Assembly: GCA_026391315.1 (NCBI GenBank)
Contig: JAPLDT010000088.1
Location: forward strand, 6,222-70,221
Origin: Bacteroidia bacterium
Lineage (GTDB): Bacteria > Bacteroidota > Bacteroidia > Bacteroidales > Prolixibacteraceae
Reading direction: 5' to 3'
DNA length: 64,000 nt
Part shown: positions 5,527 to 54,023 of the stretch, one piece after another
Layout of the letters: each line of letters opens with the position of its first letter
How positions within the stretch are numbered: the first letter of the stretch is position 1
Made by a program: the position numbers and the translations under genes
Notes under the pieces: model-generated
Told to the model about the DNA's origin: nothing
Seen by the model: the letters and a program-made list of their open reading frames with translations, nothing else
Databases searched by the model: none

Positions 5527-6552
5527 TTATTCAAAATCACTCCAAGTTAATAATATATTTTTTCCAATGTCTTTTTTTGCCTTTTTCCCGAGTACCTCAT
5601 CCATTCTATGCGATGGAATGCCAGTTCCAGGTCGTTTTGTCCAGATCATTTTTTCGGAGATTATCTCACCTTTTTTAATTTCTTCTACACTAACAATACT
5701 CCTGAAAGCCCACTCCCTAATCTGTACTTCCCTCTGGTGAATCTTTTTTTCATTACCCATGGCAGCTTCTATTTTACGAATACCATCACACAGTAAATGA
5801 AGTTCTTGAAAATCAATAGATACACTTTGATCTGGACCCGGTGTGCGCTTATCTAATATTACATGTTTCTCTATTATAGCTGGCCGAAGTACTGTTGCTG
5901 CCAAACATGTATATATGTCTGGTGTATGATCTGAATGACCAATGATTGCTTTAGGAAAGCGAGTTTTCATTTCGGAAATAACTCCAAAATTAACATCCTC
6001 ATATTTGGGTGGGTACTCAGAAACGCAATTTGTCATTGCTAATTTAACTCCATAATCGGTTAATGCTTTATAGGTACGATAAATTTCCTCATAACTACAC
6101 ATCCCCGTAGAAACAATCATCGGATTTCCAAGATCGGCTATCTTTAGTAAGGAAGGCACATCTGTCATTTCTCCTGACCCAATTTTAAAAATATCTAGCC
6201 CAATTGATTTTAGTTCAACTGCCGCCTTATAACTAAATGGTGTGCACATGTACTTAATTCCAATTTCATTGCAGAATACCATCAGTTCCATGTGATTTTC
6301 AAGACTTAATGCATTCTTAACGAGAAAATCATATAAAGGTGTTTCAAAATTATCACTTTTAGGAACATCTTGAAGCATCTCTTCATAAGGCAAGTGATGT
6401 TGAAATTTTATGGCACTCGCGCCAGCTAATTTAGCTTGGACACACATTTCTCTAGCATCGTCCATATTCCCCATATGGTTATCACCTGCTTCTGCAATGA
6501 TAAACACAGGATGATTGGATCCAATTTTTACTTTATCTACTAAGATTTCCAT
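5527..6552 (-). CDS. neuB: N-acylneuraminate (nonulosonate) synthase with C-terminal SAF domain
   Basis: 341 aa. It shows FIIAEAGDNHMGNMDDAREM, AGASAIKFQ and a C-terminal SAF-like RSIVSVEEIKKGEIISEKMIWTKRPGTGIP. Confidence 0.9.
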   Translation of the reverse strand: MEILVDKVKIGSNHPVFIIAEAGDNHMGNMDDAREMCVQAKLAGASAIKFQHHLPYEEMLQDVPKSDNFETPLYDFLVKNALSLENHMELMVFCNEIGIKYMCTPFSYKAAVELKSIGLDIFKIGSGEMTDVPSLLKIADLGNPMIVSTGMCSYEEIYRTYKALTDYGVKLAMTNCVSEYPPKYEDVNFGVISEMKTRFPKAIIGHSDHTPDIYTCLAATVLRPAIIEKHVILDKRTPGPDQSVSIDFQELHLLCDGIRKIEAAMGNEKKIHQREVQIREWAFRSIVSVEEIKKGEIISEKMIWTKRPGTGIPSHRMDEVLGKKAKKDIGKNILLTWSDFE

Positions 6553-29006: not shown

Positions 29007-29036
29007 TTTCACGAATTTAGACGAATTACACGAACG
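29007..29036 (-). repeat. ACGAAT-triplet motif
   Basis: The plus strand reads TTTCACGAATTTAGACGAATTACACGAACG. It lies 76 nt upstream of the gmhA start. Confidence 0.9.
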
Positions 29037-29042
29037 CTTTGA

Positions 29043-30167
29043 TCAGACTTTTTCCATCCATTTTTTCTTGAGTGGTTCGATGAAGCCTTTCCCAAAAACA
29101 ATTCCAGTTCCAATGACTCCCCCAAAAAAGAGCCAGATAAAAAGGATCATCGGTTTATTGGGCTTGGATTTCTCACTTGGAACGGTCACTGGCTCAATAA
29201 TCGTAAATACCGGTGTATCTTTTTTGACCTGTATTTTGGCTTGCTCCAATTGTTTGGCCAATTCCTGAAACACACTAAATGCAATGGTGTATTTTGATTG
29301 GATACGGTCGAGTTCAATGCGCGGCAGGCCACTGGTGAAATTTTTGTTGCGATCGGTTACCAGGGCGAGACTGACCTGCGCTTTCTCGAATTCGGCTTTG
29401 ATTTCGTTGTAACGCCGCTGAATAAAGTCGAGGTTGGCCTTGGCTTTTTCGATTTTGAATTCAGTGATGGAATTCTGCAACAGGTTCTGTGCTTTTTGAG
29501 CCAACTGCGCAGCAATTAATGGTTCAGACATTTGAGTGGTCAAAGTCAAATACCCTTCCTTAGCGTTTACATTCAATGAAACTATTCCATCTAATGCTTT
29601 TTTCAAAGCATACTGATCATTCGTAAGTAAAATGAGCTGGTTAACCAATCCATCCGCAAGGGATAATTCTTTTGGTTTTCCTTTGATAGCGCTGATTAAC
29701 AGACCCGGGAGGCCAATGGTGTATTTCTGAATTGAACCAAGTATGGTTGGCTTGCTGTATTTGGTGTAATAATCGAAAAGGGTAATGGGTTTTGCATAAT
29801 CCTGAAAATTTAGCGGGGTATTCATCAGTTCGAGCTGAAAGGGAATGCTTTTAACGATTTGTGGATAAATCATGGGTGAGAGATCCGCCCCGGGAGTGGC
29901 ATCGAGGCTGATTCCTGCCAGGGCAGCCAATCCGCCCAGTCCGCCCATTCTAGATTGACTGTCGCCTGATTGAGGTACCATCACGGTAGTAGCAGTAAAT
30001 TCGTTGGGTGTAGAAATGGCAATTACAATTCCCAGTATTGCCCCGCAAAGAACTGAATAAAGGATGATTTTCCTGCCGTTCCACATGGTGTGGGCTAGGG
30101 CAAGCAGGTCGATTTCGTCAGGATCGCTGTTTGGGGGAGGGGTGGGTATTTGGGTTTCTTTTTCCAT
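29043..30167 (-). CDS. wzz: Chain-length determinant protein (Wzz family)
   Basis: 374 aa. It has an N-terminal TM segment (ILYSVLCGAILGIVIAI), a long coiled periplasmic region and a C-terminal TM segment (MILFIWLFFGGVIGTGIVF). Confidence 0.75.
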   Translation of the reverse strand: MEKETQIPTPPPNSDPDEIDLLALAHTMWNGRKIILYSVLCGAILGIVIAISTPNEFTATTVMVPQSGDSQSRMGGLGGLAALAGISLDATPGADLSPMIYPQIVKSIPFQLELMNTPLNFQDYAKPITLFDYYTKYSKPTILGSIQKYTIGLPGLLISAIKGKPKELSLADGLVNQLILLTNDQYALKKALDGIVSLNVNAKEGYLTLTTQMSEPLIAAQLAQKAQNLLQNSITEFKIEKAKANLDFIQRRYNEIKAEFEKAQVSLALVTDRNKNFTSGLPRIELDRIQSKYTIAFSVFQELAKQLEQAKIQVKKDTPVFTIIEPVTVPSEKSKPNKPMILFIWLFFGGVIGTGIVFGKGFIEPLKKKWMEKV

Positions 30168-30177
30168 AATAAGACAA

Positions 30178-30207
30178 TTTCACGAATTAAAACGAATGAC
30201 ACGAACG
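30178..30207 (-). repeat. ACGAAT-triplet motif
   Basis: The plus strand reads TTTCACGAATTAAAACGAATGACACGAACG. It lies 10 nt upstream of the wzz start codon. Confidence 0.9.
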
Positions 30208-30228
30208 GGTCGAGGATCGATTTGAGGA

Positions 30229-30519
30229 TTATTTTTGCATTTTTAATAATCTTGCTGAATGATGTATCCGGACTACACCAATGTATTTACGGTGAATCTT
30301 ATAGATGATACGATAGCTGCCTTCAATTAGTTCTCTCAAGGATCTCTTCCCATATTCAGGTACGATCCTTCCTGACTCGGGAAACTGTTCAATCTGATCA
30401 ACCCGAGAAATAAGCTTTTCTACCAAATTGTTTGCATACGCATGAGACTCTTTTGAAATGTAATCGTGAATGTTTCTCAGGTCATCAATTGCAAGTTCTG
30501 TCCAAACAATTTTCACCAT
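30229..30519 (-). CDS. ParE/RelE-family type II toxin
   Basis: 96 aa. It shows IVWTELAIDDLRNIHDYI...FPESGRIVPEY...RELIEGSYRIIYKI...VVRIHHSAR. Confidence 0.8.
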   Translation of the reverse strand: MVKIVWTELAIDDLRNIHDYISKESHAYANNLVEKLISRVDQIEQFPESGRIVPEYGKRSLRELIEGSYRIIYKIHRKYIGVVRIHHSARLLKMQK

Positions 30520-30686
30520 TTTGAAACTATCTCTTTAACTTTGTTATGAGGAACGGTTTTTCCCTGTTCCAATTCTATTAGACCTTTCTCGACCTTTTCC
30601 ATAAAAATTAGTTTTTCAAACAAACTTTCAAGTTCAAAATCAGGAGGAAATTCTCTAATGGCATCAATCACAAGTTCCTTTTTCAT
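30513..30686 (-). CDS. Small antitoxin candidate paired with ParE
   Basis: Own translation gives MKKELVIDAIREFPPDFELESLFEKLIFMEKVEKGLIELEQGKTVPHNKVKEIVSKW. Its stop overlaps the toxin start (ATGGTGA). It is below the ORF-track length cutoff. Confidence 0.6.
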   Translation of the reverse strand: MKKELVIDAIREFPPDFELESLFEKLIFMEKVEKGLIELEQGKTVPHNKVKEIVSKW

Positions 30687-30720
30687 GTTTATATTTTGTT
30701 TTTTAATTGTCGGTTATCTA

Positions 30721-30750
30721 TTTCACGAATTATTACGAATTACACGAACG
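30721..30750 (-). repeat. ACGAAT-triplet motif
   Basis: The plus strand reads TTTCACGAATTATTACGAATTACACGAACG. It lies 34 nt upstream of the ParE-antitoxin start. Confidence 0.9.
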
Positions 30751-30770
30751 GGAGATCGGTAGTCGAGGTT

Positions 30771-31166
30771 TTATATTGAAGATGTTAAGTATTCAAGAAT
30801 TTTAAGGTAAAGTTCTTCGGCATATTTGAAGTTGGTTTCAACCTCTTCGCGAATGGGAACTATGTACCTCGGGCCAGGATAGCGATCTGTCTCGTAATAA
30901 TCACTGATAACTATAATAGCATCTATTTTAGATTTGTCAATTTGAATCTTCTCACAAACAAAACGAAATAGGATTGTTAAGGAATGTGTCCTGGGAATTG
31001 CAATACTGTGATATGCAAACACTGCTTTAAAAGATTTCTCGATAGTTTGATGTATTTCTAAAGCAATACTGTCAGTATAATGATTCTCTCTGATCAATAA
31101 TCTGGCTGTGTCCAAATTTTTCTTTGCCAGATTTAGCCACTCTAATGCGTACGCTTGATTAGGCAT
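30771..31166 (-). CDS. HEPN-domain protein (HepT-like toxin candidate)
   Basis: I start it at the internal Met (MPNQAYALEWL), which gives an ATGCCTAA 8-nt overlap with the upstream MNT gene. A conserved PRTHSL motif is present. The ORF track extends it to 31211. Confidence 0.7.
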   Translation of the reverse strand: MPNQAYALEWLNLAKKNLDTARLLIRENHYTDSIALEIHQTIEKSFKAVFAYHSIAIPRTHSLTILFRFVCEKIQIDKSKIDAIIVISDYYETDRYPGPRYIVPIREEVETNFKYAEELYLKILEYLTSSI

Positions 31167-31485
31167 AAATGGTTTTACCCTTGGTGTAAATCTCTTTATA
31201 GAATAGATCACCTAAATTAATTCTTTCCAGAATCCTCTTTTCGTTGTCAACAATAATATCGAATGAATAGTCGAGTTTGCCTAGTTTGACCCATAAAGCT
31301 TTTTTCAAGGTAATTCTAAAATCGCGTGTTTCATTTGCCGGGATGTTTTTTATAACCAAAAGATCAATATCACTGGACTCATTGGGTGTACCATAGGCAT
31401 ACGAGCCGAAAAGGATGATTTTCTCTACCCCATATTGTGTAATGATGGAAGTAACTTCTTTTAGTATTTTGTCTGGATTGGTCAT
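31159..31485 (-). CDS. Minimal nucleotidyltransferase (MNT/MntA-like antitoxin candidate)
   Basis: 108 aa. The NTase motif is LFGSYAYGTPNESSDIDLLV. Confidence 0.75.
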   Translation of the reverse strand: MTNPDKILKEVTSIITQYGVEKIILFGSYAYGTPNESSDIDLLVIKNIPANETRDFRITLKKALWVKLGKLDYSFDIIVDNEKRILERINLGDLFYKEIYTKGKTIYA

Positions 31486-31503
31486 TTAACTTCTGATAAA
31501 AGA

Positions 31504-31584
31504 TTTCACGAATCCCGAATCGCTCCGCTCTCGGGACGAATTCCATTAAAAACAATTTCACGAATTAAAACGAATTTCACGAAT
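31504..31584 (-). repeat. Composite of ACGAAT words with an embedded CCCGA...TCGGG hairpin unit
   Basis: The sequence is TTTCACGAATCCCGAATCGCTCCGCTCTCGGGACGAATT + CCATTAAAAACAA + TTTCACGAATTAAAACGAATTTCACGAAT. The same modules recur in swapped order at 32157-32248. Confidence 0.85.
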
Positions 31585-31778
31585 GGGATGAGGGGGTAAT
31601 GTAAATTACAATCCTTCAATTGCATTAGCCGGAATTATTCGGTGAATGTAAACTATGGAGCCAAAAATGGCAAATATTATAACCATTTCATGTGTATAAA
31701 ATTTGTTTTTTAATTGCCACATGGAATACCCACATATTCATTTTCGGTTGGTGTGAAAATATCCTCATGGGTATTTCT

Positions 31779-31973
31779 TTATAGTTTATGCGCTTTGTGT
31801 TTTGTCCGTATTTTAGTAATTGTGGTCGTGTATAATAAGGCAATGTTTCGTACGTCTACTCCGTAATGATTACTTAGTTTATCCCATACCTTGTCCCATA
31901 CTTCATTATGCGATAAAGCGGTACAGTTTTGTAAATCTTCGGGTAAAGGATATTCAATTGCAGCTACTTTCAT
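31779..31973 (-). CDS. Hypothetical small protein
   Basis: 64-aa ORF with no recognisable family. It shares its 105-nt upstream leader with the DUF2283 gene at 32344-32538. Confidence 0.35.
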   Translation of the reverse strand: MKVAAIEYPLPEDLQNCTALSHNEVWDKVWDKLSNHYGVDVRNIALLYTTTITKIRTKHKAHKL

Positions 31974-32073
31974 TCGTAAATATATTTGTTAAATTATTAT
32001 ATATCAGTATGTACTCATGGAACTCGCAAATGGATTTACATCGCCTTTTGTTAACTTAGCCCATGCTCGTTTC
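31969..32073 (-). repeat. 105-nt duplicated leader, copy a
   Basis: By eye it is about 80 percent identical to 32534-32638. It ends exactly at the start codon of the 64-aa gene. Confidence 0.85.
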
Positions 32074-32147
32074 TTGTGTTTTTCGATTTCGCGTACTAAT
32101 TTACGTCCGGTTGGGCTGTCGATATTTATGCGAGCTGTAACTTCCAT
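32004..32147 (-). CDS. Hypothetical small protein (47 aa)
   Basis: Own translation gives MEVTARINIDSPTGRKLVREIEKHKKRAWAKLTKGDVNPFASSMSTY. An ACGAAT-triplet motif lies 9 nt upstream of its start. Its 3' two-thirds lies in the duplicated leader, so coding status is doubtful. Confidence 0.25.
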   Translation of the reverse strand: MEVTARINIDSPTGRKLVREIEKHKKRAWAKLTKGDVNPFASSMSTY

Positions 32148-32156
32148 GATGTTAAT

Positions 32157-32248
32157 TTTACGAATGCCACGAATTTAAAACGAATTCCATTAAAAACAAT
32201 TTCACGAATCCCGAATCGCTCCGCTCTCGGGACGAATTAGACGAACGG
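32157..32248 (-). repeat. Composite of ACGAAT words with an embedded CCCGA...TCGGG hairpin unit (second copy)
   Basis: It shares CCATTAAAAACAATTTCACGAATCCCGAATCGCTCCGCTCTCGGGACGAATT with 31504-31560. Confidence 0.85.
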
Positions 32249-32343
32249 GACGAGGCAGATTTGTGTGGATTACTATGTTTTTTGTTAGTGATATTGTACA
32301 AAGTGTGTTCGTGCAATTGGTTTAAAATTAGTGGAATTAGTTT

Positions 32344-32538
32344 TTAAGCAACTTCATAAAGAATCCCTTTTTCTTGTTCCATTTTACTTGAAGCATTCAG
32401 AATTTCAATGCCTACTATTTGGCCATCTTCCGCATAATCAAGTATGATGTCAGGCTTTTCCTGATCACTTTCTGCTATTTTCTGAGAAGAAAAACTGATG
32501 TAGACTATATCAGTTTCTTTGTCATATTTGATTTTCAT
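32344..32538 (-). CDS. DUF2283-family small protein (antitoxin-like partner)
   Basis: 64 aa. MKIKYDKETDIVYISFSSQKIAESDQEKPDIILDYAEDGQIVGIEILNAS matches the DUF2283 pattern I know (KIxYDxExDxLYIxL...GxxVGIEIL). Confidence 0.65.
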   Translation of the reverse strand: MKIKYDKETDIVYISFSSQKIAESDQEKPDIILDYAEDGQIVGIEILNASSKMEQEKGILYEVA

Positions 32539-32638
32539 TCGTAAATATTATTAGTAAATTATTAAATTTCAGTAAGTACTCATGGAACTCGCAAATGCAC
32601 TTATATCGCTTTTTGTGACATTAGTCTTTGCTCGTTTC
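32534..32638 (-). repeat. 105-nt duplicated leader, copy b
   Basis: By eye it is about 80 percent identical to 31969-32073. It ends exactly at the start codon of the DUF2283 gene. Confidence 0.85.
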
Positions 32639-32893
32639 ATACTTTTCTATTTTTGATGTTTTATAAGCTGTAACAACCAAGGGTGGGTTTTTTGAGTTAT
32701 TAACAAATATTCTGTAAAGATATGGTTTGTCGATTTCAATGACAATTTTTTGATAGATATCAATATTTCCCGATTTTATTATTTTCTTCTCTTTTGATTG
32801 TAGAATTTCCTCTATTATTTGTTTTGAAAGGGATCGGGCCTCAATCTGATCAATTACATGATTTGAAAACTGAAATATCTGTTTTAATGACAT
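32621..32893 (-). CDS. DUF4258-family protein (BECR/RelE-like toxin candidate)
   Basis: 90 aa. It shows FSNHVIDQIEARSLSKQIIEEIL...LVVTAYK, the pattern of DUF4258 proteins that commonly pair with DUF2283. Confidence 0.55.
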   Translation of the reverse strand: MSLKQIFQFSNHVIDQIEARSLSKQIIEEILQSKEKKIIKSGNIDIYQKIVIEIDKPYLYRIFVNNSKNPPLVVTAYKTSKIEKYETSKD

Positions 32894-33162
32894 AGATTAA
32901 ATCATTCAATTAATATGAAACGAAGTTTGATGAAAATAATTACTTGAATGAATTAATAAAGATTTGTGAAGCCTTATTTTCTCAGATTAATCTTAGTTGA
33001 AAATTGGAGAGGATTGAATCTGAATCTTATTATATTATTTTTGAACAATCGCTCTTTCCGTCCGAAAATAGGTTACCCGCTTTTTATAAAATGCTACCGC
33101 GGACCGTGCATCTTTCATATTCCCAACCCTATATTTTTTGTTTGGTGATATTATCATAAATG

Positions 33163-33187
33163 CGTTCGTGTAATTCGTGAAATTCGT
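33163..33187 (+). repeat. ACGAAT-triplet motif, inverted orientation
   Basis: CGTTCGTGTAATTCGTGAAATTCGT is the reverse complement of the motif seen elsewhere. It is preceded by TATATTTTTTGTTTGGTGATATTATCATAAA, which is shared with 36375-36405. Confidence 0.85.
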
Positions 33188-33364
33188 TCTTCATTAGAGT
33201 TGTTTGGAAATCAACAACAAAGAGAAAAGGGTCATTGTAGCAGAGGTGGAATTGAGTTTATTCAAAAAATTAGCCCAAATTAAAACCACAGAACTTGAGC
33301 AAAAGATTATCTTTCGACCACCCCTAATTACAAATCCGCGCCAGTGGTATTTTTTTGTATTTTA

Positions 33365-36307
33365 TTACAACTGTTTGGACAAAATCAGAAGGGTGAAAAT
33401 TGCTGTTGTAGCTGCTAACGTACGATTCCAGAAATCGTTCCAATTCATTTTTTCATTGGCAACCTTTGGCTCTTTTGGGGGTTTAAGATGCATGCTTACC
33501 GTTGCGCCGGTTTCAACCTGAGGGTATTTTTTGAAGAGCCAGAGAATAGATTTTGTTGATTTCATCTGCCCGTTTTTGAGCGTAACGGTTACACTCTTCT
33601 TGTCGGCATCTTTGATGAAGCCCCCGGCATAATTTTTGACGTACCATTTGGCTGAATGGTTGCCCTGGTAGACAATGTTCAGGCTGGCGCCACCCTCCTG
33701 CCTGAGCCGAGTGCCGGTCGATTCGATGGTGATGGTGTTTTCCAAGCGGTTGATGTTGATTATATCCCCTTCGAAAAGGATGGGGTCAATTCTTTTGTTC
33801 CCACTGTGATTTATTGCTTTTTTTACGTCTATTGTTATAGATCCTCTGTTGTTGTAGGTACGGAAAAGACGACTTCCTTTGGCATCGGCGCTGGGAAGAA
33901 GACCTCCTGCTCTATTAATGATCGCACTTAATTGTGTTTGCTTCGTATCCAATTGGTAGATCCCGGGATAGGCAATTTCACCTGTAATTTCGATGTATCT
34001 TCCCATCGTAAAACCCGGGGTTAACCTGACAACAACGTAATCATACGGTTGAAGTGTAAAATAGGCGGGGGTAAGGACCTTGTAGGTACTATCCACCTCC
34101 AATTTTATGACTTCCAATTTTACCGGCTCTTTGGGAGAAATGTGCGTCCGAAATACTTCAATTTTGTTAAATGCTGCTCCAAGGGTAAATCCTCCGCAGG
34201 CAGTGAGGATGTCGGGAATGGTGAGTGAACTGTCGTAAATGAAAGATCTTGGTGTTTTTATGGCGCCACTTACCTGTACCTCGCCGTTGTTGATGTACAG
34301 GGAGCTGTCGTACACATTCAGCTGGTCACCGGGTTGCAAAAGAATATTTTCAGATTTATCGAGTTCAATTCGGATGTATTGCATTCTCTGGGGGACTAAC
34401 AGGTCGCGACGAAAAATGTAGGCCACATTGGATGCTCCGGCCTTTAACCCTCCAGCAAGTTCAAGTGCATTTTTAATGGATACCCTGTCGGTAAAAGTAA
34501 AAGTTTGTTCGAATGGACTGCGCACAAAACCTGCAACAGCAATCCTATTTGTTTCGGTAAAGGTGTTTTTGTCAAAGATCATCAGTTGGTCACCGGGAAG
34601 CAGAACATAATCGTTGGAGGTCGCCAGTTCGAGTCGCAGATATTTTTTTTCCTTTGGATTCAACAAATTGTAGCGCAGTATATATGCAATGGGATAGAAA
34701 TCAATTTTTAAACCACCCGCCATTTCGATAGCCTGCTTCACCGTAAGATGGTCGGTAATGGCAAAACTTTTTTCAAACGGTGCACGAACATGACCGGTTA
34801 CGGATATACTGGCCACATCGCGAAAATTGGCCAATTCCGTTACGGCTACCTTGTCGCGGGGATAGAGTTGAAAGGTCTTGTTGGAGTCCCTTAAATTGTT
34901 GTAGTTGACGGAGAAACGCTCAATGGTCAAATCCTTGCGAATCCGCTCCACAAAGATCAGGTCCAGTTTGGCCTGTGGGGTCGGCTGGGCATTTTTCAAC
35001 AGAATATCGAGCGTGGGGTTGGCTGTTAAATCGAACCTGCCCGGGTAGAAGAGGCTTCCGGATATGTCGACAAACTGCTCGATCGGCTTGCCAATCGCCT
35101 TGGTGCGTATAATATCCCCGTTTTGAAGCGGGACAACAGTTTTGCCGGAAAGCACATCGGTAAGATTCCACTCCTGAAGCCGCACTTCGCCGTTGGAAAT
35201 GCGTTCGATCTGCACAAAGTCCGCATAGGTGTTTTCATTGATGCCACCTGCGAATTTGATCAGACTGGCAAGGGTTTCGTTGGGGAGCATCTCATATCGC
35301 ATGGGGCGTTTTACTGCACCTTCCACCCTTACCAGCTCCTGTGCCACCGGAACAAAGAGAATGTCGTTTTGCTGCAAATCGAACTTGAACTGGATGGTAG
35401 GGTCGTTCATAAATGCGTAGAGGTCGATGGTTTTGCGCTCATTGCCACGGATCAACTGGATGGCGCGCACCGAACCGATGTTGGTAACGCCGCCTGCCGC
35501 CGAGAGGGCATTGAAGGCCGAGTTGAGGGCCGAGAGGTTGAAGCCTCCTGTGAGCTTGGACTCGCCAAAGACATTCACCATGATAGTCCGTGCAGAGGCG
35601 ATGGTAAGGGCAAACTGGTCGGAATTGAAGGTATAGGAGGAGGAGAAACGTTCCTGCAACAGCTTTCTTGCCTGCAACAGGGAGAGCCCCTGTAAAAATA
35701 TTTTGGGCATCCCGGTAGGCTGTATGAATCCCTGACTGTTTACCGGCAACTGCATGTCCGTTTGAGAGGCGCCGAATATGGAGATACGGATTTCATCGCC
35801 CGCGCCCAGGATGTAGGTGTCGGGGGCACGGGAGCCGTCGGTGGTACGGAAGACATCGAGCGACTGGTCGGTAAAGAGGGAGTGGCCGTAGATGGCCCCG
35901 GGGTTGTCCTGTGCAGCCGCTTTCTGGGCTACTTTCTGTCCAGCTTCGGCAATGGCCTCTTCTTTGGTGGTAGCGGGCTCTTTGGGACCATTCACAGTGG
36001 GTATAACTGTAACAACAGTAGTGGGAGTTGTCACTTTGGTTGCGTTGCCGGCGGCAGCTTTTTTCTCTTTCTCCATCTCGTCGAGCACGGCCGTTATCCT
36101 GGCCTGGTATGTGGGCAGCTCGGCAGGGGGGATGTTCTCGATGTCGATCCCATTCTTCAGGAGCCGGGCTTTTACCTCCGCTTCGTTGAGCCCGCGCTTG
36201 GTGAGTTCGGCGTTGATCATGGTCTGAATGGCGGGGGTGGGCACATTCTGTGATTTAAGAGGTGGGGTTATTACAAGGAGTAATAGGATGAATAGAAGAT
36301 TCTTCAT
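33365..36307 (-). CDS. wza: Outer-membrane polysaccharide export protein, large multi-SLBB Wza/BexD family
   Basis: 980 aa. It has a signal peptide (MKNLLFILLLLVITPPLKSQ), Poly_export-like IYGHSLF...YILGAGDEI, and many repeated SLBB-like units (GxVxxPG...L..AI..AGG). Confidence 0.8.
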   Translation of the reverse strand: MKNLLFILLLLVITPPLKSQNVPTPAIQTMINAELTKRGLNEAEVKARLLKNGIDIENIPPAELPTYQARITAVLDEMEKEKKAAAGNATKVTTPTTVVTVIPTVNGPKEPATTKEEAIAEAGQKVAQKAAAQDNPGAIYGHSLFTDQSLDVFRTTDGSRAPDTYILGAGDEIRISIFGASQTDMQLPVNSQGFIQPTGMPKIFLQGLSLLQARKLLQERFSSSYTFNSDQFALTIASARTIMVNVFGESKLTGGFNLSALNSAFNALSAAGGVTNIGSVRAIQLIRGNERKTIDLYAFMNDPTIQFKFDLQQNDILFVPVAQELVRVEGAVKRPMRYEMLPNETLASLIKFAGGINENTYADFVQIERISNGEVRLQEWNLTDVLSGKTVVPLQNGDIIRTKAIGKPIEQFVDISGSLFYPGRFDLTANPTLDILLKNAQPTPQAKLDLIFVERIRKDLTIERFSVNYNNLRDSNKTFQLYPRDKVAVTELANFRDVASISVTGHVRAPFEKSFAITDHLTVKQAIEMAGGLKIDFYPIAYILRYNLLNPKEKKYLRLELATSNDYVLLPGDQLMIFDKNTFTETNRIAVAGFVRSPFEQTFTFTDRVSIKNALELAGGLKAGASNVAYIFRRDLLVPQRMQYIRIELDKSENILLQPGDQLNVYDSSLYINNGEVQVSGAIKTPRSFIYDSSLTIPDILTACGGFTLGAAFNKIEVFRTHISPKEPVKLEVIKLEVDSTYKVLTPAYFTLQPYDYVVVRLTPGFTMGRYIEITGEIAYPGIYQLDTKQTQLSAIINRAGGLLPSADAKGSRLFRTYNNRGSITIDVKKAINHSGNKRIDPILFEGDIININRLENTITIESTGTRLRQEGGASLNIVYQGNHSAKWYVKNYAGGFIKDADKKSVTVTLKNGQMKSTKSILWLFKKYPQVETGATVSMHLKPPKEPKVANEKMNWNDFWNRTLAATTAIFTLLILSKQL

Positions 36308-36318
36308 TTTATTATTTA

Positions 36319-36443
36319 TTTCACGAATTTAGACGAATTACACGAACGAGTTAATGATGATTCGTGTAGATTACTATATTTTTTGTTTGGGGATATTATC
36401 ATAAAGGGGTTCGTGTAATTGGTTTAAAATTAGTGTAATTAGT
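36319..36443. repeat. Palindromic element of about 125 nt: ACGAAT triplet, spacer, degenerate inverted ACGAAT triplet
   Basis: The left arm is TTTCACGAATTTAGACGAATTACACGAACG (11 nt upstream of the wza start). The right arm is GGTTCGTGTAATTGGTTTAAAATTAGTGTAATTAGT. A related copy lies at about 32200-32340 and a half copy at 33100-33187. Confidence 0.75.
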
Positions 36444-36552
36444 ATATAATCACAAACGAGATAATGATGATTTGTAAAATCTTATTTTTTAAAATTAATC
36501 TTAGTAGAAAATCGGAGACGGGTGAATCAAAATCTTATTATCTTATCTTTCA

Positions 36553-36621
36553 CCCTTCGGCTACGCTCAGGGACCGGTGCCTTTTTAAACTCTTCACCCT
36601 TCGGCTACGCTCAGGGACCGG
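36553..36621 (+). repeat. Two copies of the 25-nt repeat CCCTTCGGCTACGCTCAGGGACCGG, 44 nt apart
   Basis: The copies lie at 36553-36577 and 36597-36621 and are exact over the core. CCTAGTCATCC words follow. Confidence 0.9.
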
Positions 36622-36761
36622 TACTCGTCCTAGTCATCCTAGTCATCCAAGTCGTCCTAGTCCTTGCACAGCTTCGCCTCCTCAGTCCCATTTCTTTGCA
36701 AAAGGACTGCTATTTGCTTCTTAATAAATGTAGCCGGCAAAACCAGTGCGGTTAAGTCGGC

Positions 36762-37301
36762 TTAGTTTTTGTGCTGCCACAAAAGCAGCATATCTTTTTC
36801 GCTCATCTCCTGGTAAGTCGATTTGAACTGCAGCGTATTGATGAGTTTGTAACAGATGTCTTTTTGTAACAGGGGCTTAGCCTTTTTGATCAATGAATCC
36901 AGAAAATCGGTGTCAATATCGTTTCCGACCAGGAGTACGTCGATGTTGGGTCCGTCGCTTCCGTGCGCGAACGAGCCGGTAAGGTAAACTTCCTCTACCG
37001 ATCCAAGTTTTTCAATCACCTGTTCAAGTATTTGATCGATGCCCAAATGTTTGTGCAACAGATTTTTTATTTCCGGATATAATGGGTAGGAGGTGTTCGC
37101 GGAGTAGATCCTGCGGTTACCGGATTCATGGGCTACGATAAGGCCGGCCTGCTCGAAACGGTTCAGTTCCAGACGTATGGAATTGGTTGATTCGCCAAAT
37201 TCGCTCTCCAAACCACGCAGGTAAGCCTGGGTGCTGCTGTTGAGAAAAAACTTCAACAACAACCGTATTCTGGTCTTGGATGTTATTAGGTCACCGAGCA
37301 T
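36762..37301 (-). CDS. Winged-helix (ArsR-like) transcriptional regulator fused to a nucleotidyltransferase-like domain
   Basis: 179 aa. The N-terminal KTRIRLLLKFFLNSSTQAYLRGLESEFGESTNSIRLELNRFEQAGLI is a wHTH. The C-terminal EVYLTGSFAHGSDGPNIDVLLVG resembles a minimal NTase motif. Confidence 0.6.
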   Translation of the reverse strand: MLGDLITSKTRIRLLLKFFLNSSTQAYLRGLESEFGESTNSIRLELNRFEQAGLIVAHESGNRRIYSANTSYPLYPEIKNLLHKHLGIDQILEQVIEKLGSVEEVYLTGSFAHGSDGPNIDVLLVGNDIDTDFLDSLIKKAKPLLQKDICYKLINTLQFKSTYQEMSEKDMLLLWQHKN

Positions 37302-37515
37302 TCAACTTAGGTTAATTGAGTAGCTAAATTACTCATTTGGAGTTTTGGATGATTTTTTGAAATAATTACAAAAAATAGGTCAAAGATGGGATAAGGCAAG
37401 CAGAGTCGAAGAAATATTACACAGAGAAAAAATAACTATTAATGAAATATCTGTTTGGGATGGAAATTTATGCCTCCTGATAAATTTTAGAGGAAAACAC
37501 AGAGTTCACGGAGTT

Positions 37516-37536
37516 AAAAATCGCAAGCGATTTTTT
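37516..37536. terminator. Weak palindromic terminator-like hairpin between the wbpA-like gene and the regulator
   Basis: AAAAATCGC AA GCGATTTTT. The stem is short and AT-rich, so this is only suggestive. Confidence 0.25.
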
Positions 37537-37627
37537 CTCTTTGAATAATAATTTGCCCGGTCAGAGATGTCAATGACGCCTGATAAATGACATCTGATGC
37601 TAAAACAAGCAGATGAAATTCCCGTTT

Positions 37628-37653
37628 CCCCTTCGGCTTCGCTCAGGGACCGG
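37628..37653 (+). repeat. 25-nt repeat, single copy
   Basis: The sequence is CCCTTCGGCTTCGCTCAGGGACCGG. It lies 8 nt downstream of the wbpA-like stop. Confidence 0.85.
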
Positions 37654-37660
37654 AACGTTT

Positions 37661-38965
37661 TTATAGTTTGTAAACCTTATCGGATGCTATTTTCACGGCA
37701 TTACGGAGATCGACGATCAGTTTTGCATTTTTAAGGATATCGTCGATGTCGAAAACAGAGTGGCTGGTGGTAATGACTACACAGTCTGATTGTTGGAGCA
37801 GCTCAGAGGTAAGCGGCGCTGAATTGAAATGAAGGCCCCTGGTGGTGGCAATGGTTGGGATGTAAGGATCATGGTAATGAATGATCCCTCCTTTTTGGGC
37901 TACTTCGTCAATGATTTTAAGCGCCGGGGATTCGCGTTCGTCGTTAATATCAGGTTTGTAGGCTACTCCTAAAAACAATATTTTGCTTCCGTTAATCGCC
38001 TTTTGTTGTCGGTTCAGCGCGGACGCAATCTTAAGGGTCATCCGATGGGGCATCATCATGTCGATGTGGCCCGCGGTATGGATCATGGAGAGGTCGAAGT
38101 TGAATTTTTTGGCAATGTGTTCGAGGTAAAACGGATCGAGCGGGATGCAATGGCCGCCAATACCCGGACCCGGATAAAAGGCCTGGAACCCATATGGTTT
38201 AGTTTTGGCGGCATCGATTACTTCCCATATATCGATGTTCATTTTCCCGCACAACAGGGCCATTTCGTTGATCAGGCTGATGTTGATCAACCGGTAAGTA
38301 TTCTCCAGTATCTTCACCATTTCGGCAACCTTAGGGGAGCTTACAGGGTGAATCTGGTCAATGGCATAACCATAAATTGCCTTTCCCAACACCAATCCGT
38401 CATCTGACATTGCACCCAGTACTTTAGGGGTATTTCTGGTCCCGAATTGTTTATTTCCTGGATCGACCCGTTCAGGGGAATATGCCAGCCAAAAATCAAT
38501 TCCCTCTTTTAGCCCTGATTCCCTTTCCAGGATTGGCAACATGAAATCTTCGGTCGTGGTTGGATAGGTTGTACTTTCGAGACAGATAAAGGTACCCTTC
38601 TTCATGTTTTGACCTATCTCCCGACAAGCTGTTTCTATGAATTCCATGTTCGGTTTCTTGAACTGGTCGAGAGGAGTTGGCACGCAAATTAGTATGGCAT
38701 CACATTCGCTGATTCTCGAAAAATCGGTTGTGGCTTTGAAATATTTGTTTCCGACCGCTTCTGAGAGCTCCTGATCAGAAACATCTCCAATGTAGTTAAT
38801 TCCGCTATTTACTTTTTCAACTTTAGAAAGGGACTTGTCGAATCCAATGGTCATGACTTTCTTTTCCGCGAAGCTTACAGCAAGCGGTAGACCAACATAA
38901 CCGAGGCCGATGATGCCGACAGTGAAGTCGTTATTCGATATTTTTTGAAGTAAATTTGATTTCAC
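37661..38965 (-). CDS. UDP-N-acetyl-D-glucosamine (or -mannosamine) 6-dehydrogenase, WbpA/WecC-like
   Basis: 434 aa. It shows VGIIGLGYVGLPLAV and GGHCIPLDP. The only possible start is GTG at 38963-38965, inside the ACGAAT-triplet motif. Confidence 0.8.
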   Translation of the reverse strand: MKSNLLQKISNNDFTVGIIGLGYVGLPLAVSFAEKKVMTIGFDKSLSKVEKVNSGINYIGDVSDQELSEAVGNKYFKATTDFSRISECDAILICVPTPLDQFKKPNMEFIETACREIGQNMKKGTFICLESTTYPTTTEDFMLPILERESGLKEGIDFWLAYSPERVDPGNKQFGTRNTPKVLGAMSDDGLVLGKAIYGYAIDQIHPVSSPKVAEMVKILENTYRLINISLINEMALLCGKMNIDIWEVIDAAKTKPYGFQAFYPGPGIGGHCIPLDPFYLEHIAKKFNFDLSMIHTAGHIDMMMPHRMTLKIASALNRQQKAINGSKILFLGVAYKPDINDERESPALKIIDEVAQKGGIIHYHDPYIPTIATTRGLHFNSAPLTSELLQQSDCVVITTSHSVFDIDDILKNAKLIVDLRNAVKIASDKVYKL

Positions 38966-38988
38966 GAATTTTGACGAATTACACGAAT
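38961..38988 (-). repeat. ACGAAT-triplet motif overlapping the GTG start of the wbpA-like gene
   Basis: The sequence is TTCACGAATTTTGACGAATTACACGAAT. The CAC at 38963-38965 is the reverse complement of the GTG start. Confidence 0.85.
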
Positions 38989-39199
38989 ATGTTAATGAAG
39001 ATTTGTGCGAACAATTGAGTTATAAATTTGATATATAAACCTTATTTTTCTGTTTAAACCTTAGTAGAAATGGGTGGTAGATTGAATCTGACCTTATTAC
39101 CTTATTGAATTGGATAAATTAAATAAGGGTGGTTTTAGTATGAATGTTTTTCTTTTTCAAATATTGCATTTTTCCGTCTGAAACAGAAATTTACGCCTC

Positions 39200-39340
39200 T
39201 TTGTGCTGCCTCTCGCAGGCGGTTCAACTTTCCACATCTCTACCCCGGGGTGCCGCTCCTTCGTCGCTCTGCCCCGGGCTACAAATATGCCGCCACTACG
39301 TGGCTGGATTAGTAAGCGTGCTATATTGTGGTTTGGAACC
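39200..39340. repeat. Partial, diverged copy of the composite repeat core
   Basis: CCCCGGGGTGCCGCTCCTTCGTCGCTCTGCCCCGGGCTACAA is shared with 42822-42862. The hairpin GCCAC-TAC-GTGGC at 39292-39304 replaces CCGC-TAC-GCGG. Confidence 0.75.
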
Positions 39341-39444
39341 GGCCTTATATTCTTGCCCATCGACCCTTCGTCCTATCTTCCCTTCATTCTTCCATCCGTC
39401 CCTCAGTCATTTTAGTCATTTTCCGTCCTACCCGTTTCATTTTC

Positions 39445-40335
39445 TCACCTACGAAGACTGCTGGCGATTTCAATGCTTTTCCTTGCATCGTCGATGCCGA
39501 AGCCTTCACCGTTCAGGATGGCTTTGTAGCTTTCGGTATGCAGATCGGTAAAGCCTTCGCTAAATTCAAGCTCTTCACCTTCAATGTTTATTTTGCGGTA
39601 GGTGCGTTTTTGGTTGGCAACAGCTTCTGCGGGCAAGTCATTTTCATCCACACTCAAAAACCAGTTGACATTAGCCTTTTCAAAGTAAAGTTTGCCTCCG
39701 GCTTTCCCTGGTAGGTTAATTTCCTGTTCCACACCCTTAAAATCGCCGAAAACCCATCCCAACATGTCAAAAAAGTGTATTCCGATATTGGTGGCAACTC
39801 CTCCGGATTTATGAATATCCCCTTTCCAGGAGAAAAAGTACCAATTTCCGCGACTGGTGATGTAGGAGAGATCAACTTCGTACACTTTGCCTTTTGGCCC
39901 ATCATCAATGTTTCTTTTTAACTGCTGAATGGCAGGATGTAACCTTAACTGCAGGATTGTAAATATTCTTTTGCCGGTTTCCTGTTCGATCTCCTGCAGG
40001 CCATCCAGATTCCAGGGATTCAATACCAAAGGTTTCTCACAGATGGCATGTGCATCATTGCGCAAGGCCATTCGCATATGGGCGTCGTGAAGATAATTGG
40101 GGGAACAAATGCTCACATAATCTATTTTCTGGGTACCCAGACGGCGAAGTTTATCAAGGTGTCTGTCAAATCTTTCGGGTTCTGTGAAGAAATCTGCTTT
40201 AGGAAAATAACTATCCATAATGCCAATGCCGTCGTAAGGATCAAGGGCACAAACCAGATTGTTCCCAGTCTCTTTGATGGCTTTCAGGTGGCGGGGGGCA
40301 ATGTAGCCGGCGGCTCCGATTAAAGCAAAATTCAT
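39445..40335 (-). CDS. UDP-N-acetyl-2-amino-2-deoxy-D-glucuronate 3-dehydrogenase, WbpB/WlbA-like (Gfo/Idh/MocA)
   Basis: 296 aa. MNFALIGAAGYIAPRHLKAIKETGNNLVCALDPYDGIGIMDSYFP...ICSPNYLHDAH...ICEKPLVL closely follows the WbpB/WlbA pattern. Confidence 0.8.
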   Translation of the reverse strand: MNFALIGAAGYIAPRHLKAIKETGNNLVCALDPYDGIGIMDSYFPKADFFTEPERFDRHLDKLRRLGTQKIDYVSICSPNYLHDAHMRMALRNDAHAICEKPLVLNPWNLDGLQEIEQETGKRIFTILQLRLHPAIQQLKRNIDDGPKGKVYEVDLSYITSRGNWYFFSWKGDIHKSGGVATNIGIHFFDMLGWVFGDFKGVEQEINLPGKAGGKLYFEKANVNWFLSVDENDLPAEAVANQKRTYRKINIEGEELEFSEGFTDLHTESYKAILNGEGFGIDDARKSIEIASSLRR

Positions 40336-40340
40336 ATTTA

Positions 40341-40374
40341 CTAATTACACTAATTTAGACGAATTACACGAACG
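40341..40374 (-). repeat. ACGAAT-triplet motif (first unit degenerate)
   Basis: The sequence is CTAATTACACTAATTTAGACGAATTACACGAACG. It lies 5 nt upstream of the wbpB-like start. Confidence 0.75.
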
Positions 40375-40518
40375 ATATAATGAGGATTTGTAGAATAAAG
40401 CAAGTAAGAAATCAGCGTATTAATTGAACCTGAACCTTGCACAGCTTCGCCTCCTCAGTCCCATTCTATGTAAAAAGGACTGCTATTTTTGCAATTGCGA
40501 CACTGGATTGTAGTTTAT

Positions 40519-45466: not shown

Positions 45467-45991
45467 TCATTCTTTCACCACAGCCAGATTGGTTGAGGGC
45501 GATTCTACCAGCACCGTAAAACCCAGCGGCAGAATGCGAAGGGCAACCCTGTTGTTGCCGCGAAAGGAGATGAGTTCACCACGGATGCCCATCATCGGAC
45601 CGGCAATGATTTCGACCTGCATGCCAGGAAGCAGCTCCTCCCTGGTAATTTCGACCTCTACCTCACTCTGTCCGAGCATCCGTTTGAGGATTTCAATGTC
45701 ATGGTCACGGATCACCGCTGCCTTTCCTTCGAAACGGACATACTGCATCACATTGTCGATTTGCAGTACGACATCGTAGTGTTTCCTGGTGATGTGAACA
45801 AATACATACCCGGAAATAAGCGGTATTTCTACCCATTTTTTACGGTCGCTCCACTGACGAAGCTTTCGTTGAAGAGGCAGGAAGGATTCGATTCCCTTAA
45901 ATTTTAACTCTTCATGTACCTTTTTCTCTGCACGTGAGTGGACATAGACAGCATGCCATTGTTCGATAAGGGGTTTTTCTTTTGGGGACAT
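45467..45991 (-). CDS. UpxY-family (NusG-like) transcription antiterminator
   Basis: 174 aa. It has an NGN domain (WHAVYVHSRAEKKVHEEL...ESFLPL) and a KOW-like region (GMQVEIIAGPMMGIRGELISF). It is the first gene of the locus, as in Bacteroides capsule operons. Confidence 0.8.
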   Translation of the reverse strand: MSPKEKPLIEQWHAVYVHSRAEKKVHEELKFKGIESFLPLQRKLRQWSDRKKWVEIPLISGYVFVHITRKHYDVVLQIDNVMQYVRFEGKAAVIRDHDIEILKRMLGQSEVEVEITREELLPGMQVEIIAGPMMGIRGELISFRGNNRVALRILPLGFTVLVESPSTNLAVVKE

Positions 45992-53992: not shown

Positions 53993-54023
53993 TTTCACGA
54001 ATCTAGGCGAATTGCACGAACGG
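53993..54023. repeat. ACGAAT-triplet motif outside the polysaccharide locus
   Basis: The sequence is TTTCACGAATCTAGGCGAATTGCACGAACGG. It lies just after the ogt stop and is followed by the MITE-like palindrome at 54077-54243. Confidence 0.8.

Follow-up and report, generated by a model that had tools for sequence, protein, structure and literature searches.

Why does one phased direct repeat stand just ahead of the start codons of so many genes in the middle of a single polysaccharide operon? The operon lies in a stretch of 64,000 nucleotides (nt), called the window here, which covers positions 6,222 to 70,221 of contig JAPLDT010000088.1 in the GenBank assembly GCA_026391315.1 of a Bacteroidia bacterium (Prolixibacteraceae), and the repeat is a three-unit ACGAAT motif that separates genes such as wza and wzz from one another and from toxin-antitoxin (TA) pairs. 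A preliminary description, made from the letters of the window, offered as explanations an operator for a winged-helix regulator encoded nearby, an RNA-level signal, or the terminal portion of a repeat that tends to lie at gene starts. On the best reading of our analysis, the motif represents the 3′ arm of what we call a tandem-word hairpin repeat. Such an arm is made of two to four ten-base words of the form (A)ATTCGTG(N)A. We put at roughly 0.5 the probability that it serves as a junction or recombination spacer in the variable part of the operon and does so with no sequence-specific regulator.

The motif itself is real. In gene direction it reads CGTTCGTG-TAATTCGT-NNN-AATTCGTGAAAT, which is three units of (A)ATTCGTG(N)A with a period of 9–10 nt, and with this consensus the window holds eight matches at three or fewer mismatches, as against none in 100 shuffles. 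The consensus proposed earlier stands except for its NN spacer between units 1 and 2, which gave no matches at all; NNN is required. The eight matches start at 29007, 30178, 30721, 31556, 36319, 38960, 40345 and 53993, and all are on the + strand and thus read along the minus-strand genes, so that the single orientation reported before holds. Of the copies listed in the preliminary description, those at 31504 and 32200 are fragments of one to two units beside a small GC hairpin, the one at 32157 is a three-unit variant, and the one placed at 40341 begins at 40345. The inverted copy and the copy outside the locus are both genuine (Table 1), as are the distances reported for wzz, wza, the gmhA-like gene and, at about 5–9 nt, the wbpB-like gene, and the GTG start lying inside the last unit of another copy.

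Table 1. Position of the motif copies and of the other features discussed (window coordinates, except where a contig of the same genome is named).
Feature	Position	Strand	Context
Motif copy, 0 mismatches	29007..29036	-	76 nt before SIS/gmhA-like ATG 28930; after wzz stop
Motif copy, 0 mismatches	30178..30207	-	10 nt before wzz ATG 30167; 21 nt past ParE stop
Motif copy, 0 mismatches	30721..30750	-	34 nt before 57-aa ParD-like ORF (30686); ~21 nt past HEPN stop
Composite element	31498..31593	-	Three-unit copy 31556-31585, linker, small GC hairpin, one- to two-unit copy
Second composite of like build	32155..32270	-	96% identity over 45 nt to 31498-31542; includes three-unit variant
Inverted copy, 5′-arm type in operon direction	33163..33191	+	Downstream of wza
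Sole full palindrome	36318..36443	-	5′ arm 36395-36443 (CACTAAT/CACGAAC words); 3′ arm is motif 36319-36348
Motif copy, 2 mismatches	38960..38989	-	Last unit holds GTG start 38965 of wbpA-like UDP-sugar dehydrogenase
Motif copy, 2 mismatches	40345..40374	-	CACTAAT variant words; about 5-9 nt before wbpB-like GFO/IDH/MocA ATG 40335
Diverged motif copy, 3 mismatches	53993..54022	-	Outside locus; directly past ogt stop, not before a start codon
179-aa protein, C-terminal nucleotidyltransferase domain, possible N-terminal winged helix	36762..37301	-	Pfam domain at residues 88-162
UpxY-family NusG-like antiterminator, operon head	45467..45991	-	Motif not beside gene
GxxExxY genes	C99:69147-69497, C39:7014-7358, C52:14879-15220, C48:127987-128328, C54:39175-39438		Different word per site

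By our own count the motif occupies nine of the 12 non-overlapping gene junctions between 28.9 and 40.4 kb, and it is found at none of the approximately 30 remaining junctions of the operon. The genes of this segment confirmed by Pfam include those for Wzz, a 980-amino acid (aa) Wza, ParE with a small upstream open reading frame (ORF), an MNT/HEPN pair and DUF4258/DUF2283 proteins, together with a UDP-sugar dehydrogenase, a GFO/IDH/MocA oxidoreductase and a SIS protein. A start codon follows most window copies after 0–34 nt, with an overall range of 0–76 nt, and a typical spacer of about 60 nt is made up of a stop codon, ~21 nt, the 30-nt motif, ~10 nt and the ATG; the copy at 30178 and its flanks fill the whole 61-nt spacer between the ParE gene and wzz. 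The earlier statement that the motif lies 9–34 nt before three TA or small-gene cassettes is borne out by distances of 34 nt for the ParD-like ORF, 18 nt for the MNT gene and 7 nt for a 47-aa ORF. For the MNT gene (ATG 31485) the distance is measured from the one- to two-unit copy of the first composite element, and for the 47-aa ORF (ATG 32147) from the three-unit variant of the second, at 32157. No minus-strand terminators are predicted in the segment. The familiar control elements, namely the standard Bacteroidota promoter (TTTG ... TAnnTTTG), extracytoplasmic function and sigma-54 promoters and a parS-like half site, were looked for by eye and rejected, as the spacing is wrong for them and the variable triplet shows no conservation.

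What, then, is the complete element? Most window copies are lone 3′ arms, eight of them with no partner arm. The palindrome before wza, whose arms lie 33 nt apart and whose 3′ arm ends 11 nt before the ATG at 36307, is the only close inverted pair in the window; beyond the inverted copy at 33163 there is in addition a degenerate 3′ arm, at a distance of ~200 nt and directly before the DUF4258 gene. The full design is seen in two motif-bearing genomes of other groups that were examined closely, an acidobacterial metagenome-assembled genome (MAG; G043) and Mucilaginibacter flavidus (G045). The copies of the MAG are inverted pairs 30–60 nt apart which form near-perfect hairpins of ~95 nt. In each of them CACGAA words, three to four in number, build the 5′ arm and TTCGTG words the 3′ arm; the loop between is short and AT-rich, and the ends read GAG...CTC. 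The polarity is fixed, as the CACGAA arm precedes the TTCGTG arm in all 15 pairs listed and the reverse order does not occur among them. M. flavidus has the same hairpin design with longer loops, and in both genomes the hairpins are dispersed. The complete element is thus 5′-(CACGAA..)n, short loop, (..TTCGTG)n-3′. The acidobacterial hairpins end GTTGAG ... CTCAAC, and in many cases the stop codon of an adjoining gene overlaps with their terminal TGAG or is provided by it. One such hairpin stops 4 nt short of an ATG, and the gap contains no Shine-Dalgarno sequence; placement of hairpins relative to ORFs in this high-GC genome was too noisy for further use.

Elements of the same class are found on other contigs of the window's own genome. 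This genome (G000; 4.69 Mb, 111 contigs, 42.8% GC) has five small nuclease-like GxxExxY (TIGR04256) genes, each lying between mirrored arrays of short words, for example CACAGAG/CTCTGTG, CACAAAT/ATTTGTG and CAGAATT/AATTCTG. The 5′ arm has CAC-type words around at least three of the five genes, and ATTTGTG differs from ATTCGTG by one base. The arms of these genes are mirrored, in at least three cases with like polarity, and we therefore take the motif to be one word family of that class. The GxxExxY cassettes and the motif share tandem short-word arms, the CAC../..GTG polarity and a position in gene spacers, and where the motif has both arms these mirror each other too; GxxExxY genes adjoin TTCGTG arms in three relatives; the motif differs in having a 10-nt word and in occurring mostly as lone 3′ arms in direct repeat. 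The tandem-word hairpin family is widespread and has apparently gone without a description, full-text searches of the literature on four motif strings having turned up nothing relevant. No Rfam family matched the locus or ten hairpin loci, where the scans yielded only sub-threshold noise of the microRNA-like hairpin kind, and the wza palindrome had no BLAST match in phage and plasmid collections.

The distribution of the motif does not fit a regulon. A fuzzy scan of the genome finds 10 copies, eight of them on the window's contig; a profile search adds only a few weak matches, and a two-unit pattern is likewise nearly restricted to the locus. With eight of 10 copies in one locus there is no genome-wide set of targets, and one of the others, on contig C67, follows the end of a convergent gene instead of preceding a start. 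Within the genus the motif is present in 15 of 25 genomes, and there the version with TTCGTG words occurs only in the variable middle part of a single polysaccharide operon; none of 16 other families of the order has the motif. An exact scan for the 24 specified bases of the motif, with one genome per species, found this core in 108 stretches, many of them from Prolixibacteraceae and others from Paludibacter, Prevotella, Tannerella, Mucilaginibacter, Ferruginibacter and Chitinophaga, as well as from MAGs labelled Calditrichia, Ignavibacteriales, Planctomycetota, Phycisphaerae and Acidobacteriota. As the same words are present in several phyla, the motif is not specific to the locus. It is nevertheless rare overall, with a three-unit match in two of 300 other Bacteroidota genomes sampled evenly, a figure that undercounts because the pattern used (AATTCGTG-first, at most one mismatch) matches only two of the window copies. 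Five motif-bearing genomes of other groups hold 35, 35, 72, 36 and 39 copies spread over many contigs.

Is the position before start codons a general property? For 178 copies or clusters we recorded any ATG-initiated ORF of at least 70 aa that starts within 150 nt. Downstream in the motif direction there was such a start for 108 of the 178, with 48 at 0–15 nt and a further 23 at 20–30 nt, while the reverse direction gave 32 ORFs, nine of them within 15 nt and with no peak. The preference for gene starts in one orientation and at short distance therefore holds over 178 copies even though the regulon does not, and the preliminary suggestion of a repeat-element end that favours gene starts is the one best in line with the evidence, the element being the 3′ arm of a hairpin family found in several phyla. 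Most of the downstream genes are polysaccharide genes (wza, wzz, UDP-sugar dehydrogenases, wecB, rfbF/G/H-like and wbpB-like), others are small accessory genes (HicAB, MNT/HEPN, GxxExxY), and in other groups they include aroQ, rsgA-like, purM and exbD-like genes. The arms that stand beside genes are mostly of one kind, with 10 3′ arms to one or two 5′ arms in the window and 17 to two in the genus genome G009. Upstream of aroQ in five species of Chitinophagaceae, 30 of 31 positions of the 3′ arm are invariant while the flanking genes are 80–88% identical, and the 5′ arm differs by whole words.

The start-codon bias, the retention of 3′ arms alone beside genes and the nearly invariant aroQ arm would all be expected if the arm were a functional RNA leader that sets translation initiation, processing or stability of the next gene on the polycistronic mRNA. 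In variants of this idea the arm could be a binding array for an RNA-binding protein, or the two-arm hairpin could be cut by a double-strand RNase so that the start region is freed, and hairpin arms do come within 2–4 nt of start codons in some genomes. Start codons, however, lie anywhere from 0 to 76 nt away and in one case inside the copy itself, most window copies lack the partner arm and so cannot form a hairpin, and no Rfam family was found. The motif is moreover decayed or absent before orthologous wzz genes, and unrelated words stand before their paralogues. We regard an RNA leader as rather unlikely, but it deserves more weight than the other alternatives considered below.

Four to five genomes of the genus have their copies gathered in the variable central part of a single polysaccharide locus, and TA and GxxExxY cassettes are shuffled between these genomes. 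G009 has 19 copies in ~20 kb of one contig, G015 has 19 that are mostly on one contig, and G016 has nine over four short contigs. When three arrays are mapped, the same small cassettes recur with their order changed and with other neighbours. The MNT and HEPN proteins of the window are 94 and 92% identical to those of G015, HicAB is ~80% identical between G009 and G015, and DUF2283 is 98% identical, while the Wza proteins share only 27% identity. Ends of shared segments lie within 50 nt of a motif in 26% of cases, compared to 7.5% for random positions. At an acetyltransferase gene with 90% DNA identity, G002 has a module that the window does not; the extra 225 nt are a composite of another hairpin element and the motif, with no target duplication.

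The motif is also lost and replaced at homologous genes. Among wzz homologues of the genus, with 49–60% protein identity, the upstream motif is intact in G000, G015 and G016, while G011 has it half decayed, G017 and G005 have clearly decayed versions and G006 lacks it. Beyond these homologues, more distant wzz paralogues (L195, L197, L200 and L201) have other word arrays abutting the ATG, with the words CATTTCAAAC (five times), CCCATAGT with a mirrored GGGACTATG arm upstream, and TTTCACA. From these differing arrays it follows that word arrays are drawn to the site directly before the start whatever their sequence, which argues against a sequence-specific partner at this position in the genus. 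A conserved leader of ~100 nt upstream of the motif is restricted to three homologous loci and was set aside. In the seven relatives G015, G010, G016, G011, G018, G024 and G005 we further noted a nucleotidyltransferase gene followed by a glycosyltransferase starting MIPK(L/I)LH(Y/H)VWLS; in most relatives this glycosyltransferase stands where the window has wza, so that core gene order differs between species.

The regulator proposed in the preliminary description is the 179-aa protein encoded at 36762-37301, and its operator would be the motif, read as direct repeats on one helix face before each gene, with an OmpR/PhoB-type protein as the other candidate. The phasing of the units at 9–10 bp, or one helical turn, suits such a regulator, and the N-terminal 90 residues of the protein give weak winged-helix matches (PaaX, E-value 0.003; BlaI-type, E-value 0.24). 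Its gene is syntenic with the motif and occurs in 11 of 25 genus genomes, including all five with at least four motif copies, a co-occurrence that is expected from synteny alone. Against this, three of the five motif-rich genomes of other groups have no homologue of the protein, and homologous genes carry unrelated words where the operator should be. The sites lie 0–34 nt from starts within the operon and not upstream of promoters, and copies outside the locus that could form a regulon are lacking. A single-sequence fold reached a pLDDT (predicted local distance difference test) of 41, too poor to confirm a winged helix, and PDB and NCBIfam searches with the protein gave nothing useful.

The gene has in addition a conserved sequence of its own. 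A palindrome GAGTAA..TTACTC, different from the motif, precedes its start in 10 genus genomes, and this is probably the gene's own operator and a better candidate than the motif. In the window the segment 37302-37345 contains the palindrome as GAGTAA(n)TT(n)G(n)TACTC, ending ~15 nt before the ATG; the remainder of the spacer varies among the 10 genomes. The 36762-37301 protein is thus probably not the binder of the motif, and the operator claim is not supported by the comparison with the motif-rich genomes and with the unrelated arrays at wzz. A winged-helix operator appears to us the least probable of the explanations weighed here.

Could the arms be sites for a dedicated recombinase? The layout of repeat, gene, repeat, gene in one orientation, with TA-rich cassettes that recur in other orders elsewhere and with hairpin forms in existence, is what an integron with attC-like sites would show. 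The likeness to integron arrays is that genes and TA pairs are separated by a related repeat which ends shortly before the next start and that the same cassettes are arranged otherwise in other genomes. Unlike integron arrays, the motif arrays have no integrase beside them, no attC core order (RYYYAAC...GTTRRRY) and mostly no hairpins, most copies being non-palindromic, and they include core biosynthesis genes. In G000, G009 and G015 the contigs with the arrays encode no tyrosine recombinase, and in G024 the closest one is at a distance of ~80 kb. The second form of this idea, inverted repeats for an Mpi-type invertase, goes back to the CGTTCGT in the motif's first unit, which it shares with the Mpi consensus; a literature search for that consensus turned up nothing relevant. 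Mpi-type invertons of Bacteroides fragilis are inverted pairs around a promoter segment of ~150–250 bp with a serine invertase, whereas the motif copies are direct repeats and the marker-complete genome has no resolvase-domain gene, and no serine invertase was found, so that the resemblance noted earlier has no counterpart in arrangement or enzyme. Site-specific recombination by either route is in our view very unlikely.

Transposon families were compared as well. Judged as a miniature inverted-repeat transposable element, the motif family has inverted arms; the one filled and empty site that could be compared, at the larger composite module of G002, has no duplication, and no transposase was found. 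The motif-rich genomes do hold seven to 12 Y1 transposase genes each (PF01797; 49 matches), but the loci of ten that were inspected were in no case flanked by the words; on these ten a link to REP-associated tyrosine transposases (RAYTs) was rejected, and on shared contigs the listed coordinates place Y1 loci and motif copies at least 10 kb apart. A REP unit is a stem-loop of 20–40 nt with a GTAG or CGTC tag (PMC3733652). REP and REPIN families resemble the motif family as short intergenic repeats, often head-to-head in long hairpins, present in dozens per genome and patchy across species, some of them with no dedicated transposase; they differ in that the unit here is a non-palindromic 10-nt word in tandem, and in the RAYT association, of which the ten Y1 loci gave no sign. 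The STRR heptamer repeats of heterocystous cyanobacteria, reportedly described by Mazel and colleagues in 1990, are tandem short words in intergenic DNA with unknown function. Their word length and sequence are other than those of the motif, and they are not known to occupy a fixed place just ahead of start codons in polysaccharide operons. JUMPStart/ops, the element of RfaH, is likewise a short conserved non-coding element of a polysaccharide cluster with a NusG-paralogue antiterminator, here of the UpxY family. It is a single leader element with another sequence, whereas the motif stands at nine junctions inside the operon but not in the leader around the UpxY gene.

Under the spacer reading, cassettes would enter, or be copied into, the short gaps of the operon, each bringing an arm, so that the arm would come to lie just 5′ of the next start codon in gene direction. 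What lies between the spacers is either a TA pair, a small ORF or one of the core genes, among them wza, wzz and those for the sugar dehydrogenases. Many copies in the same orientation would then provide homology blocks of 30–60 nt for the gain, loss and re-ordering of cassettes, and the copies would keep one another alike. We observe directly the anatomy and distribution of the element, its bias in orientation and in distance to starts, the shuffling of cassettes between genomes, and motifs that have decayed or been replaced at homologous genes; from these we infer that the arms travel with the cassettes, that recombination between arms drives the shuffling and that a sequence-specific regulatory partner is lacking.

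Several results weigh against this interpretation. No target-site duplication, transposase or recombinase could be tied to the element. A passive remnant should leave both kinds of arm beside genes, and not an excess of 3′ arms, and the near-invariant arm at aroQ looks like selection on its sequence; either a degree of selection on the arm or concerted evolution is therefore likely, at least in certain lineages. The enrichment of breakpoints near the motif may come in part from the faster divergence of intergenic compared to coding DNA. The parallel with gene-bearing elements is incomplete as well: a TTCGTG-armed element with a gene in its loop was not found among the GxxExxY and four-helix-bundle genes inspected, and where GxxExxY genes lie next to the motif, as in G009, G015 and G016, the copies on either side are direct and not inverted. 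TTCGTG arrays flank none of 30 four-helix-bundle genes (PF05635, 23S rRNA intervening-sequence protein) in five motif-rich genomes, and on these 30 genes the protein was rejected as the cargo of the word.

A bolder form of the spacer reading takes the TTCGTG arms to be the junction signal of an integrase-less cassette system and at the same time a portable translation leader, a functional analogue of integrons by which several phyla would diversify their surface-polysaccharide loci. Small promoterless units with one arm (TA pairs, GxxExxY nuclease genes and even core sugar genes) would be inserted, excised and re-ordered within polysaccharide operons, and a GxxExxY-type nuclease or host recombination might be the driver. 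We hold both the system and this traffic of one-arm units to be unlikely, a degree more so than an RNA leader.

If the spacer reading is true, the middle of the operon is a cassette array with a standard repeat spacer and not a series of individually regulated genes. This would bear on how surface-polysaccharide loci diversify and on how TA and small nuclease genes settle in operons without breaking them. That a 10-nt word recurs almost unchanged in at least five phyla, and with a fixed polarity of its arms, suggests that a mechanism or partner is shared. In annotation, a phased direct repeat that precedes many starts should not be taken for an operator as a matter of course.

Other repeats are present in the same part of the window. 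A GC-rich mini-hairpin (CCGGTCCCTGAGCGTAGCCGAAGGG in gene direction) occurs in three copies, at 36553-36587, 36597-36631 and 37629-37663, which flank the nucleotidyltransferase gene, and related GC hairpins lie inside the motif composites at 31505-31530 and 32205-32230. A 106-nt duplicate (31968-32073 and 32533-32638, 84% identity) runs from the 3′ end of a small ORF through the spacer that leads to the following ATG; G015 has a copy in reverse orientation, a sign of segmental duplication inside the cassette array. A 54-nt element with GGGACTGAGGAGGCGAAGC is found at 36662-36715 and 40435-40488 (89% identity) and also 3′ of the nucleotidyltransferase gene in 10 of 10 relatives, each time followed by a differing short tandem-word array (GGACGAC, GTGAAAAT, CGAAAAT, GGTTAAA and others). 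Finally, the conserved segment at 33085-33130, (C)CGTCCGCGGTAGCA ... CGGACGG, recurs in the spacers before glycosyltransferase genes of several relatives and could be a small structured RNA or another repeat.

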